Shown one piece after another: positions 3,734-15,934 of a stretch of DNA of 64,000 nucleotides (its first letter is position 1; each line of letters opens with the position of its first letter). Origin of the DNA: Nitrospirota bacterium. GTDB taxonomy: Bacteria; Nitrospirota; Thermodesulfovibrionia; Thermodesulfovibrionales; JdFR-86. Under the pieces are notes generated by a model, which did not search any database, had not been told where the DNA came from, and saw only the letters and a program-made list of their open reading frames with translations. Position numbers and translations under genes: made by a program. The stretch spans positions 608,001-672,000 of the forward strand of contig CAVRJY010000001.1 of NCBI GenBank assembly GCA_963721805.1. Reading direction: 5' to 3'.

Positions 3734-3890
3734 ATAACGGACGCGCTGCATATTAGCGCGGGGTGAACGGTAAAAGTATCGGCGCGGTCGGCTTATGTTA
3801 ACGGCTGGCCGCGCTGTTTTTCACCCATTGGGGGACACGGTCCCCTTTTTATACCGCATCATATTTCTTCATACTTGATGCCGTACCCTT

Positions 3891-3977
3891 GGAGGGGTGG
3901 CTGAGCGGTTTAAGGCGGCGGTCTTGAAAACCGTTGTAGGGGTGACCCTACCGTGGGTTCGAATCCCACCTCCTCCG
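3891..3977 (+). tRNA. tRNA-Ser (anticodon UGA)
   Basis: GGAGGGG...TCCTCC-G acceptor stem, GCGGT-CT-TGA-AA-ACCGT anticodon arm, long variable arm, GTTCGAATCCC T-arm. CCA is not encoded. Confidence 0.95.
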
Positions 3978-4020
3978 TATCCTCAAATCTTTGCCCGGCA
4001 AGGGTTTGCGCCTGAAACCA
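3959..4020 (+). repeat. Left att-like direct repeat
   Basis: TCGAATCCCACCTCCTCCGTATCCTCAAATCTTTGCCCGGCAAGGGTTTGCGC. Confidence 0.85.
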
Positions 4021-4151: not shown

Positions 4152-4706
4152 CTATGAGTTAGAAAATGCCAACTCTTTTCCCTGTTCCATCCTGAACTGA
4201 TCCGGTGTCAGATTACCCAAGCAACTGTGTGGCCGCTCTTGGTTATATTCTATGCGCCACTCTTCAACAACCCGCCTTGCATGATCGAGGCTCAGAAACC
4301 AGTTCTGATTAAGGCACTCGTCACGCAGCTTGCCATTGAAGCTCTCCATGAAAGCATTGTCAACAGGCTTGCCTGGCCGTTTAAACTGTAGCTTAATCCA
4401 TCTCTCATAGGCCCAGGCATCAAGTGCATTGCTGATGAACTCCGGGCCATTATCAACCCTGATATGGTCTGGCAAGCCCCGCATAGCTCCTACACGGCTT
4501 AAGGCTTCTGCGACCCTCTGGCCTCCGATTGAAGTGTCCACCTCGATCCTGAGACATTCTCTCGTGTACGTATCAATGATTGGCAGCAAGCGTATACGCC
4601 TGCCGTTACTCAGGGCATCGCTGACAAAGTCCATCGACCATAACTCGTTGATGCGCAGAGCCTTCGGTTGCTCAACCCTTCCCTGAGGCCTCGTTTTCGC
4701 GTGCAC
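4152..4706 (-). pseudogene. IS3-family transposase OrfB remnant (integrase core only)
   Basis: WSMDFV, DNGPEF and ESFNGKLRDECLN DDE motifs. The N-terminus and OrfA are missing. Confidence 0.85.
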
Positions 4707-13298: not shown

Positions 13299-13679
13299 AT
13301 GTCAGAAGCTTTAGCCTGCCCGGCGGGTTTCAAGGAGGATGCGGATTTCAGCCGCAAGGTGGATATCCTCAAGGCGATTGCCCACCCGGTGCGGATCATG
13401 ATACTAGATGAACTGGCCAAGGGAGTGAAGTGCGTAAGCGACTTTGCGGACTTTCTTGAAATCAAGCAGCCGAACATCTCACAGCACCTCACCGTGCTGC
13501 GCAACTGCGGGATTATCGACCACTACATGGACGGCAGGCTCAGGTGCTATTTCCTCAGGGAACCGCTCATCCCGGACATGCTGAACCTCATGCACACGAA
13601 GTATGAGAGTCTGCTTCCCGCCCCGGCGTGCTGTCCGGTTACCAAAAAAGGCAAGTACCCTGGAGACAGGAAGAACTGA
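13299..13679 (+). CDS. ArsR/SmtB family transcriptional repressor, Cys-rich
   Basis: LKAIAHPVRIMIL...QPNISQHLTVLR winged HTH, with several Cys including a C-terminal CC. Confidence 0.9.
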   Translation: MSEALACPAGFKEDADFSRKVDILKAIAHPVRIMILDELAKGVKCVSDFADFLEIKQPNISQHLTVLRNCGIIDHYMDGRLRCYFLREPLIPDMLNLMHTKYESLLPAPACCPVTKKGKYPGDRKN

Positions 13680-13731
13680 CAACGAAAGGAGGACTCATGA
13701 CAATGACCGCAGCGAACAGGAGGTGGGCGGC

Positions 13732-14076
13732 ATGAGCCGTGAACTGGTTTTGTTCCTGTCCACGACGCCGTATAGCTACGAGAACACGCATACGATCATC
13801 AGGCTCGCGAACGCGGCGCTCTCAAAGGGGCGCAAGGTGCGTCTCGTGGCCTCAGGTGACGGTGTGTTTTCACTGGTAAAAGGGCAGGTCCCGCAGTCGC
13901 AGGCCGCGCTCGTCGATCTCGTCGGGCGGGGCATGAAGGTGGACATATGAACGGGCTGCCTGAACAGCCGCGGTCTTGCGGCTGAGGATTCGATAGAGGG
14001 CGGGGAGCTTAGTTCTTTAGCGAGGCTCTTCGATACCATCAAGAGCGAACCCATATTCCTGAATCTCGGCGCATGA
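13732..14076 (+). CDS. DsrE/TusD-family sulfurtransferase, probable selenoprotein (Sec at codon 73)
   Basis: SD AGGAGGT then MSRELVLFLSTTPY...GDGV...GMKVDI-TGA(13948)-TGCLNSRG...NLGA. The frame continues 41 codons past the UGA and ends 10 nt before the dsrF-like gene. Confidence 0.8.
13948..13990 (+). promoter_or_regulatory. Bacterial SECIS-like hairpin
   Basis: 7-bp stem CAGCCGC/GCGGCTG (13965-13984) with apical loop GGTCTT starting 21 nt after the UGA. Confidence 0.7.
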
Positions 14077-14086
14077 GGGGGCGAAC

Positions 14087-14437
14087 ATGAAGGTCAGCTT
14101 TATTCTCAGGCGGCCGCCATATGGCACCGCCGATGCGGCCGAGGCCGTGAGGCATGCCCTTGGCGGGCTAACGAACGATGTCGATGTCACGCTTATCCTG
14201 CTCGACGGCGGCGCGTTCGCGGCGATCAAGGCGCAGGATGTCGCGGGCACCCCCTATCAGTCGCTCTCGGAGGGGATAGCCGACTGCATAGACATGGGCG
14301 CGGAGGTCGTCGTCGATGAGGCGTCGCTTGCCGAATGCTGCATGGGCATCGAAGACCTCGTGCCCGGCGTAAAGACGACGGACAGCGCCGGTGTGGCGCG
14401 CATAGTCGGCGAGTCCGGCTTAACGATGATATTTTAA
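14087..14437 (+). CDS. DsrF/TusC-family protein
   Basis: FILRRPPYGT...EAVR...LLDGG motif and position between the dsrE-like and dsrH-like genes. Confidence 0.75.
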   Translation: MKVSFILRRPPYGTADAAEAVRHALGGLTNDVDVTLILLDGGAFAAIKAQDVAGTPYQSLSEGIADCIDMGAEVVVDEASLAECCMGIEDLVPGVKTTDSAGVARIVGESGLTMIF

Positions 14438-14750: not shown

Positions 14751-15934
14751 ATGCCAAGGATAGCGATCATAGGCGGCTCGTTTGGCGGGTTGACCGCGGC
14801 GTTCGAGTTAAAGAGGCTTCTCGGCAGGAAGGCCGAGATCACGGTCATATCCGACTCAGACCGTTTCATCTTCATCCCCTCGCTTCCGTGGGTCGCGATG
14901 GGGTGGAGGAAGGCCGGCGACATTACGCTGCCCCTCAAGGGCATCCTCGAATCCAGGGGGATCGCCTTCATGCACACCGAGGCGAAGGGCATAGACGCTG
15001 ACGCCTCAAAGGTATTGACCACGTCAGGCGAGGTGCCATATGACTACCTCGTGATCTCGACCGGCCCTGAGCTCGCCTTCAGTGAGATACCCGGGTTCGT
15101 CCCCGGCAGCGGCAGCACGGAGTGCATCTTCACCCTCGGGCAGGCGGAGCACGCGCATAAGGCCTGGGAGCGCTTCCTGGAATCCCCCGGCCCAGTTGTA
15201 GTGGGGTCGGTGCAGGGGGTCAGTTGCTTTGGCCCGGCATATGAGTATGCATTTGAGATAGACGCCGAACTCAGAAGGCGCGGCATCAGGCATAAGGTCC
15301 CGATTCAGTTCGTCACGAGCGAGCCGTATATCGGGCATTTCGGCATCGGAGGGTTCGGGTCTCGCGCAGATGGCTTGAGGACGAGTTTGCGCAGAGGGAC
15401 ATCAAGACGCTAGCAAACCAGGCGGTCGAGGAGTTCGCCCCGGAAGAGGTGCGGCTCAAAGACGGCACGAAAATACCCTCCAGGCTTACGATGTTCGCCC
15501 CGGCGATGAAGGGCGTGCCCGCTGTCGCCCACCTAGGCAATCCGAGGGGCTTTATCCCTGTCGATGAGAACCTGAGGCACAAGAAGTTCAAAAATATATT
15601 CACAATCGGCGTCGCGGTCGCCATCGCCCCGCCGGAACCGACGCCAGTGCCCACCGGAGTGCCTAAGACCGGATACATGGCCGTGCGTATGGCAAAGACC
15701 GTGGCTGCCGCGATAACGTCGGATGTAATGGGGCAGGCCGCGGGCGCCTATGAGATGGACGTGGTATGCATCATGGACATGGGCAACACGGCCGCGTACA
15801 TGAGCGCAAGGCCGCTGCTGCCTCCGAGGCAGGAGATCACGCTAAGGAAGGCCATATGGGCTAAGTGGATGAAGGTTTGGTACGAGCGCTACTTCCTCTT
15901 CAAGATAAAGCACGGCATTTCCAATCTGCCGTGA
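14751..15934 (+). pseudogene. sqr: Sulfide:quinone oxidoreductase with a single-base frameshift at ~15357-15361 (possibly an assembly error)
   Basis: GGSFGG FAD motif, SCFGPAYE, PKTGYM and VCIMDMG. Two ORFs join if one base is added (GFG-x-SRRWLEDEF). Confidence 0.8.

Follow-up and report, generated by a model that had tools for sequence, protein, structure and literature searches.

In a stretch of 64,000 nucleotides from a Nitrospirota genome (hereafter the window), what appears to be a gene of 72 codons almost certainly has as its final UGA a selenocysteine (Sec) codon, so that its predicted product has 114 residues. The explanation that best accounts for the observations as a whole, to which we assign a probability of about 0.92, is that this gene encodes a protein of the DsrE/YchN fold with Sec at position 73, the insertion of which would be directed by a SECIS element, and that this protein would take part in a sulfur relay resembling that of DsrEFH.

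The gene starts at ATG 13732, and the TGA at 13948-13950, its codon 73, is in frame (Table 1). Past this TGA the frame continues with T-G-C-L-N-S-R-G and stays open for 41 codons up to the TGA at 14074-14076, which lies 10 nt upstream of the ATG (14087) of the next gene, a further member of the DsrE/DsrF family. When the internal TGA is translated as U, the product of 114 residues contains the motif K-V-D-I-U-T-G-C-L-N-S-R-G-L. An initial annotation of this DNA had claimed that the ORF ends at TGA 13948 although the frame goes on for 41 codons, and that read-through would give a DsrE protein of 114 aa ending 10 nt before a dsrF-like gene; both features are present in the sequence.

Table 1. 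Positions of the predicted selenoprotein gene, its signals and its neighbours in the window
Feature	Position	Strand	Description
ArsR/SmtB-family regulator gene, 126 aa	13299..13679	+	Pfam HTH_5, E 2.4e-13; directly upstream of the predicted selenoprotein gene
Shine-Dalgarno-like AGGAGG	13718..13723	+	8 nt upstream of ATG 13732; read from the sequence
Predicted DsrE-like selenoprotein gene	13732..14076	+	114 codons plus stop, predicted Sec at codon 73; translation with TGA as U
In-frame UGA (U73, first residue of U-T-G-C)	13948..13950	+	TGA in the same column in relatives; Cys in homologues
SECIS-type hairpin	13965..13984	+	8-bp stem, apical loop GUCU at 13973-13976; RNAfold and covariation
DsrF/TusC-like gene, 116 aa	14087..14437	+	PF02635, 45 bits; TIGR03010, 24.5 bits vs cut-off 94.15
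DsrH/TusB-like gene, 91 aa	14453..14728	+	PF04077, 37.9 bits; TIGR03011, 46.3 bits vs cut-off 49.2
SQR-like FAD-dependent pyridine nucleotide-disulfide oxidoreductase gene	14751..15934	+	Pyr_redox_2; in two frames here

Conservation of the UGA and of the protein that it interrupts

When 40 related genomes were searched in all six frames, 27 of them gave a full-length match that contains an in-frame TGA (29 such matches in total), and the weaker partial matches without stops that were also returned represent paralogues. The 28 loci that were read, among them that of the window's own genome, share one column for the TGA, with [T/G]-G-C directly behind it. A scan of GTDB with one genome per species confirmed 130 relatives, the best 80 of which were kept, and a TGA stands at the site in every one of them (recognised by pattern in 78, and by inspection in L114, which reads U-M-G-C, and L129, which reads U-G-A-C), a count that is not independent of the former one, since the set of related genomes and the set of public contigs overlap. 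Neither TGC nor TGT was seen at the Sec site among these best 80 of the 130 public loci, the labels of which are of the Nitrospirota, Nitrospirae or Thermodesulfovibrionales types, e.g. Dissulfurispiraceae and Ca. Sulfobium, the exceptions being one Chloroflexota and a few entries labelled plainly as 'bacterium'. Two groups of loci can be told apart, i.e. group A, which is 65-75% identical to the window and reads KVDI-U-TGC-x-x-x-RGL around the site, and group B, which is 40-50% identical and reads KVYL-U-GGC-x-N-[FY]-RRAAK. Some genomes carry Sec-DsrE clusters of both groups (L111/L118, L113/L121, G036 and G040), and one match in the last of these, G040:C58, contains one TGA together with one TAA and is possibly a broken copy.

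The protein encoded past the TGA is as constrained as that encoded before it. In group A (46 equal-length pairs) the mean pairwise pN/pS is 0.21 over the 55 codons preceding the TGA and 0.23 past it; in group B (45 pairs) the corresponding values are 0.22 and 0.17. As the values on the two sides match, the C-terminal part is under an equal constraint at the protein level. The length of the product is also kept, at 113-118 residues among the orthologues. As judged from these patterns of substitution, the part downstream of the UGA is shown to be translated.

A profile search of 1.84 billion representatives yielded 389 relatives at E <= 0.001. Among the 150 of these 389 that were listed, 28 full-length representatives were aligned, and in them the U column holds Cys in 27 cases and Ser in one, C76 and R80 being at least 90% conserved. 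Such Cys forms are confined to more distant representatives; no Cys-type orthologue was found among the close relatives in the related genomes, the listed database proteins or the public loci. The only solved structure that was matched by sequence is that of YchN of E. coli (PDB 1jx7, E 7.3e-5), and U73 and C76 align with both Cys residues of its motif C-K-T-C-T-D-G-R-G. The UGA is thus placed at a conserved catalytic Cys position, the first Cys of the YchN motif, as had been proposed in the initial annotation.

With regard to the family, the read-through product matches the Pfam family DsrE (PF02635) with 50.2 bits against a gathering cut-off of 22.7, the match extending over residues 7-104 and hence across the UGA. 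The initial label of DsrE/TusD therefore holds for the Pfam DsrE family but not for TusD in particular, as no TusD/DsrE equivalog model of NCBIfam was matched at E <= 0.01; the sole NCBIfam match is a weak one to the TusC/DsrF model, and no selenoprotein-specific DsrE model was found in NCBIfam. An AlphaFold model computed from 28 orthologues (pLDDT 85.8) has the DsrE/YchN fold, and its best structural matches are YchN (TM 0.86, 26% identity), chains A/B of DsrEFH (0.85) and TusD (0.83), with a Sulfolobus DsrE/DsrF-like protein also among them. There are nine PF02635 matches in the genome, and this gene alone contains a TGA; several of the others adjoin TusA genes.

In protein databases the gene is represented in a shortened form. 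Among the matches listed, at least 120 database homologues are 71-96 aa long (72 in most cases) and span 61-63% of the query, under such names as 'DsrE family protein', 'TusD component' and 'putative DsrE subunit of DsrEFH'. As the listed proteins end at or near the UGA, the half of the protein that carries the active site is absent from the public protein sets.

The hairpin downstream of the UGA and the Sec machinery

The stem of the hairpin that follows the UGA consists of seven Watson-Crick pairs (CAGCCGC with GCGGCUG, 13965-13971 with 13978-13984) and a G:U pair (13972/13977). When only the seven Watson-Crick pairs are counted, the loop has six nucleotides (GGUCUU) and starts 21 nt past the UGA, and this is the same hairpin that the initial annotation had described, the G:U pair uncounted, as a 7-bp stem with a G-starting loop at that distance. 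With the G:U pair included the loop shrinks to GUCU, whose first bases, G26 and U27 (numbered from the U of UGA), lie 22-23 nt past the UGA. As described for bSECISearch, bacterial SECIS elements have a stem-loop that closely follows the UGA on its 3' side, with a G in the apical loop, and the hairpin at 13965-13984 possesses both features. At gathering thresholds Rfam returned nothing at the hairpin, its match in the window being only to a tRNA, and Rfam may hold no bacterial SECIS model for this family.

The fold of the single sequence is unremarkable (z -1.44 for a stretch of 71 nt, with 21 of 200 shuffles folding equally well), and therefore the argument for the hairpin rests on comparison with relatives. 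When the 48 nt that start with the TGA are aligned without gaps, columns 18-25 form the stem with columns 30-37, and 85.7% of its cells are paired in 28 sequences, vs 38-57% when the 3' partner is slid by 1-3 columns; neither the pairing nor the covariation score of the real alignment is attained by any of 500 shuffles. A set of 79 sequences, made up of the window and 78 public loci, has 80.8% of the cells paired, vs 27-48% when slid, and G26 and U27 are invariant in it. Both sides have changed in six of the eight stem pairs, but these compensatory changes amount to few independent events, because most of them separate group A from group B; within group A, double changes are seen at columns 20/35 (G:C, C:G and U:A) and at columns 24/31 (C:G to U:A, in two sequences). 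The stem length and the distance of the G-U loop from the UGA are equal in the two groups, whereas the peptides encoded there differ (S-R-G-L-A-A vs F-R-R-A-A-K). A part of the stem conservation could be owed to the encoded R-G motif, but the frozen synonymous sites argue against this. In the 66 sequences of group A, the third-position entropy at conserved four-fold codons is 0.2, 0, 0.44 and 0 bits for codons +7 to +10 (CGC GGT CTT GCG), compared with 1.28-1.99 bits for 20 such codons upstream of the UGA, and selection therefore acts here on the RNA rather than on the protein. Both the UGA and the hairpin, the retention of which in relatives the initial annotation had put forward as a check, are accordingly kept, the former in the same column at all 28 and all 80 loci and the latter with a covarying stem.

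The genome, which is 94% complete, encodes selB (380 bits), selA (576 bits) and selD (356 bits, with one internal TGA), all of them above cut-off, as well as a tRNA-Sec at C1:1472361-1472453 (71 bits, above cut-off), which ARAGORN calls SeC with the anticodon tca; a search for selA, selB, selC and selD, as had been recommended, thus recovers the complete set. In the whole-genome search a long-arm tRNA-Ser of the window (anticodon tga, 3890-3978) reaches 52.3 bits with the tRNA-Sec model of Rfam, the gathering threshold of which is 47, and is open to confusion with selC; an integrase-core ORF (rve, rve_3; 4152-4706, minus strand) of the kind typical of IS transposases comes directly after this tRNA-Ser gene.

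Taken together, the comparative evidence shows codon 73 to be a predicted site of SelB/SECIS-type recoding. The gene at 13732-14076 would be translated into a DsrE/YchN-fold protein of 114 residues, with the UGA of codon 73 being decoded as Sec by SelB and Sec-tRNA(Sec) under the direction of the SECIS hairpin, which is located within the coding sequence 14-36 nt past the UGA, and Sec73 and Cys76 would form a U-x-x-C centre at the conserved Cys position of the family.

Other accounts of the TGA have to be weighed against this one. If the UGA were a true stop, the product would be a 72-residue N-terminal DsrE fragment and the downstream frame a decaying remnant, i.e. a pseudogene, which would agree with the short database homologues described above and with the fact that a neighbouring gene of this genome is frame-shifted. 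However, the same TGA with an open frame of conserved length behind it recurs at all 80 and all 28 loci, at 40-75% identity, pN/pS is equal on its two sides, and both the Pfam domain and the predicted fold require the C-terminal part, so that we consider this account highly improbable; the earlier view that the gene encodes a U-x-x-C protein and is not a pseudogene is supported by the conserved TGA, the pN/pS downstream of it, the hairpin and the Sec machinery. It is also conceivable that this genome has TGC or TGT at the site and that the TGA arose through faulty assembly or sequencing, given that five short contigs of the DNA run X1 do not span 13523-14432 and that at least one suspicious single-base indel lies nearby, but with TGA present in independent assemblies from many studies and no TGY at the 80 loci the likelihood of such an error is next to nil. 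Among the sequencing runs listed, X1 contains a quarter of the sampled words and none is an RNA run, and what X2 and X3 contribute to 13523-14432 are pieces of 18-34 nt from unrelated contigs.

The coding constraint downstream of the UGA would by itself be explained just as well by read-through without Sec, either through near-cognate insertion of Trp or Cys or through a genome-wide reassignment of UGA. The latter is out, because UGA ends this gene (14074-14076) and others, e.g. the orthologues of the flavoprotein gene discussed below. Against non-Sec read-through in general stand the conserved hairpin, the invariant G-U of its loop, its fixed distance from the UGA and the full Sec machinery, which are what SelB-dependent decoding needs, and the residue aligned in the homologues is Cys, the usual counterpart of Sec; we therefore regard read-through of this kind as very unlikely, and decoding of the UGA as Sec as the reading to be preferred.

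The gene cluster and its predicted role

The predicted selenoprotein gene belongs to a cluster with the gene order arsR - dsrE(U) - dsrF-like - dsrH-like - SQR-like flavoprotein, an arrangement common to groups A and B. Among the best 80 of the 130 public loci, counted in each case where enough DNA is available on the side concerned, the regulator has a homologue (at least 50% identity) upstream, in the same orientation, in 55 of 71, a DsrF-like gene is located downstream in 78 of 79, and the DsrH-like gene and the flavoprotein gene are present in 69 of 78 and 42 of 69, respectively.

The regulator matches the NCBIfam model HTH_metalloreg with 75.1 bits (cut-off 55), and the best specific model for it is BigR, which it matches with 51.8 bits and thus under the cut-off of 155. 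Its tail, P-A-C-C-P-V-T-K-K-G-K-Y-P-G, contains a vicinal Cys pair and is conserved (in the window, L027, L050 and others), and a further Cys is found within the helix-turn-helix region. The spacing of these Cys residues is presumably akin to that in persulfide sensors such as BigR and SqrR, and the regulator may be a thiol-based sensor.

Intact orthologues of the flavoprotein, 395 aa in length, score 99.8-102.4 bits on NF049943 (Type III SQR, selenoprotein subtype), the cut-off of which is 525; although this is the best NCBIfam match, the flavoprotein is not a member of that subtype. In the window the gene is split (15339-15470), one base being missing near 15360, and in all 42 relatives that have both parts of the flavoprotein GHFGIGGFG-A-SKRWLEDEF is read in one frame. 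Run X1, possibly the source sample itself, has a contig of 151 nt (15283-15433, depth 2.4) that matches the window exactly, and the split gene is either a genuine pseudogene or a product of misassembly. A second hidden UGA was considered as the cause of the split and was rejected, as the two parts do not share a frame and the relatives differ simply by one base. Since the flavoprotein gene is frame-shifted, the cluster may not be fully functional in this genome.

The cluster is not linked to dsrAB, which is located at C1:419156-421367 on the same contig, about 200 kb from the selenoprotein locus at C1:621732. Elsewhere in the genome there are five matches to the DsrC/TusE family and six to TusA. 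Three of the DsrC/TusE-family matches have an equal score of 158.3 bits (C1:801077-801394, C7:8096-8413 and C8:9038-9355) and two of the contigs concerned are small; these are either a repeated segment or one region that was assembled more than once.

In the mechanism that we propose, the selenolate of Sec73 would, by analogy with the family, act as the nucleophile that takes and passes on sulfane sulfur (or selenium) in the form of a selenosulfide, with Cys76 serving as its resolving or partner residue. To judge from gene order and homology, the F-like and H-like products would probably join the dsrE(U) product in a hexamer like those of DsrEFH and TusBCD. The dsrE(U) product probably also works with the SQR-like flavoprotein, which would supply or consume sulfur species, and the ArsR/BigR-like regulator would probably control the cluster and respond to sulfur species. 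Alternatively, the role of the DsrE-like selenoprotein may be in the handling of selenium rather than that of sulfur.

A more specific version of this scheme can be put forward tentatively, and we find it doubtful, if conceivable, in its entirety: the Sec protein would be the catalytic subunit of a lineage-specific DsrEFH-like hexamer which, together with the SQR-like flavoprotein and under a persulfide-sensing ArsR/BigR-like repressor, would constitute a selenium-dependent relay of sulfane sulfur (or selenium), occurring in two paralogous, always-Sec versions across the sulfate reducers and disproportionators of the Thermodesulfovibrionales. Such a relay would have been missed so far because gene callers end its key subunit at codon 72. 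Were this reading true, these genomes may be misinterpreted in surveys that take DsrEFH to indicate in which direction sulfur metabolism runs.

Comparison with known systems

The window gene is a new member of an already catalogued selenoprotein family, and the finding leaves the knowledge of Sec decoding and of Sec-using families unchanged. A 'DsrE-like protein' (PF02635, UxxC) has been listed as a selenoprotein family since 2005 (Zhang, Fomenko & Gladyshev, PMC1088965), the Sargasso Sea survey in that paper giving two DsrE-like UxxC sequences; one case from a bacterial genome, Desulfovibrio vulgaris, was tabulated by Zhang et al. in 2006 (PMC1794560), and the family also appears in the tables of two reviews (PMC9312934 and PMC13188914), the later of which (PMC13188914) gives its function as still unknown. 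The statement in the initial annotation that Sec-containing DsrE-like proteins have been described is thus confirmed by the tables of these four papers. Our literature search found no link between the DsrE-like selenoprotein family and Nitrospirota/Thermodesulfovibrio or an E-F-H operon, and neither 'DsrE' nor 'selen' occurs in the main text of the paper on Ca. Sulfobium (PMC5812927).

As far as the published tables describe it, the family resembles the window gene in its Pfam assignment (PF02635), in the Sec being the first residue of UxxC, in the SECIS element lying directly 3' of the UGA and in the existence of Cys homologues; the published example is WP_014524487.1 from Desulfovibrio vulgaris. 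Unlike the entries listed in those tables, the gene described here is the first of an E-F-H trio accompanied by a flavoprotein gene, in Nitrospirota of the Thermodesulfovibrionales type. The interest of the finding lies in the operon context, the two paralogous lineages that always have Sec, and the systematic annotation error that yields proteins of 72 aa.

In practical terms its value is for annotation, since the gene occurs in at least 80 species-level genomes of this group and NCBIfam offers no selenoprotein model by which the shortened entries could be rescued. Beyond this, the gene encodes a DsrE-type carrier with a predicted Sec as its reactive residue, and it lies in a conserved E-F-H and flavoprotein cluster of hosts that live by dissimilatory sulfur metabolism (dsrAB being present); the cluster is a defined and testable candidate for a selenium-dependent sulfur relay.

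Among proteins of solved structure, YchN is the most similar to the predicted selenoprotein, being its best structural match and having a C-x-x-C-x-x-x-R-G motif that aligns with U73 and C76, but it has Cys where the DsrE-like selenoprotein has Sec. YchN is a stand-alone homo-oligomer and is not known to belong to an E-F-H trio. The active Cys of DsrE/TusD, Cys78, is located in the same region of the motif as U73. With DsrEFH of Allochromatium vinosum (PDB 2hy5) and TusBCD of E. coli (PDB 2d1p), on the other hand, the cluster shares the E-F-H order, three small subunits of the DsrE, DsrE and DsrH families and, for the dsrE(U) product, the fold (TM 0.83-0.85). It differs from them in that all three proteins of the trio fall below the equivalog models (no match to TusD/DsrE, and scores under the cut-offs of TIGR03010 and TIGR03011), so that complex formation and a function in sulfur relay are suggested by distant homology and gene order, and in that Sec replaces Cys and the trio is flanked by genes for an ArsR-type regulator and an SQR-like flavoprotein. 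Because the equivalog cut-offs are missed and dsrAB is about 200 kb away, we describe the trio as DsrEFH-like rather than as DsrEFH proper.
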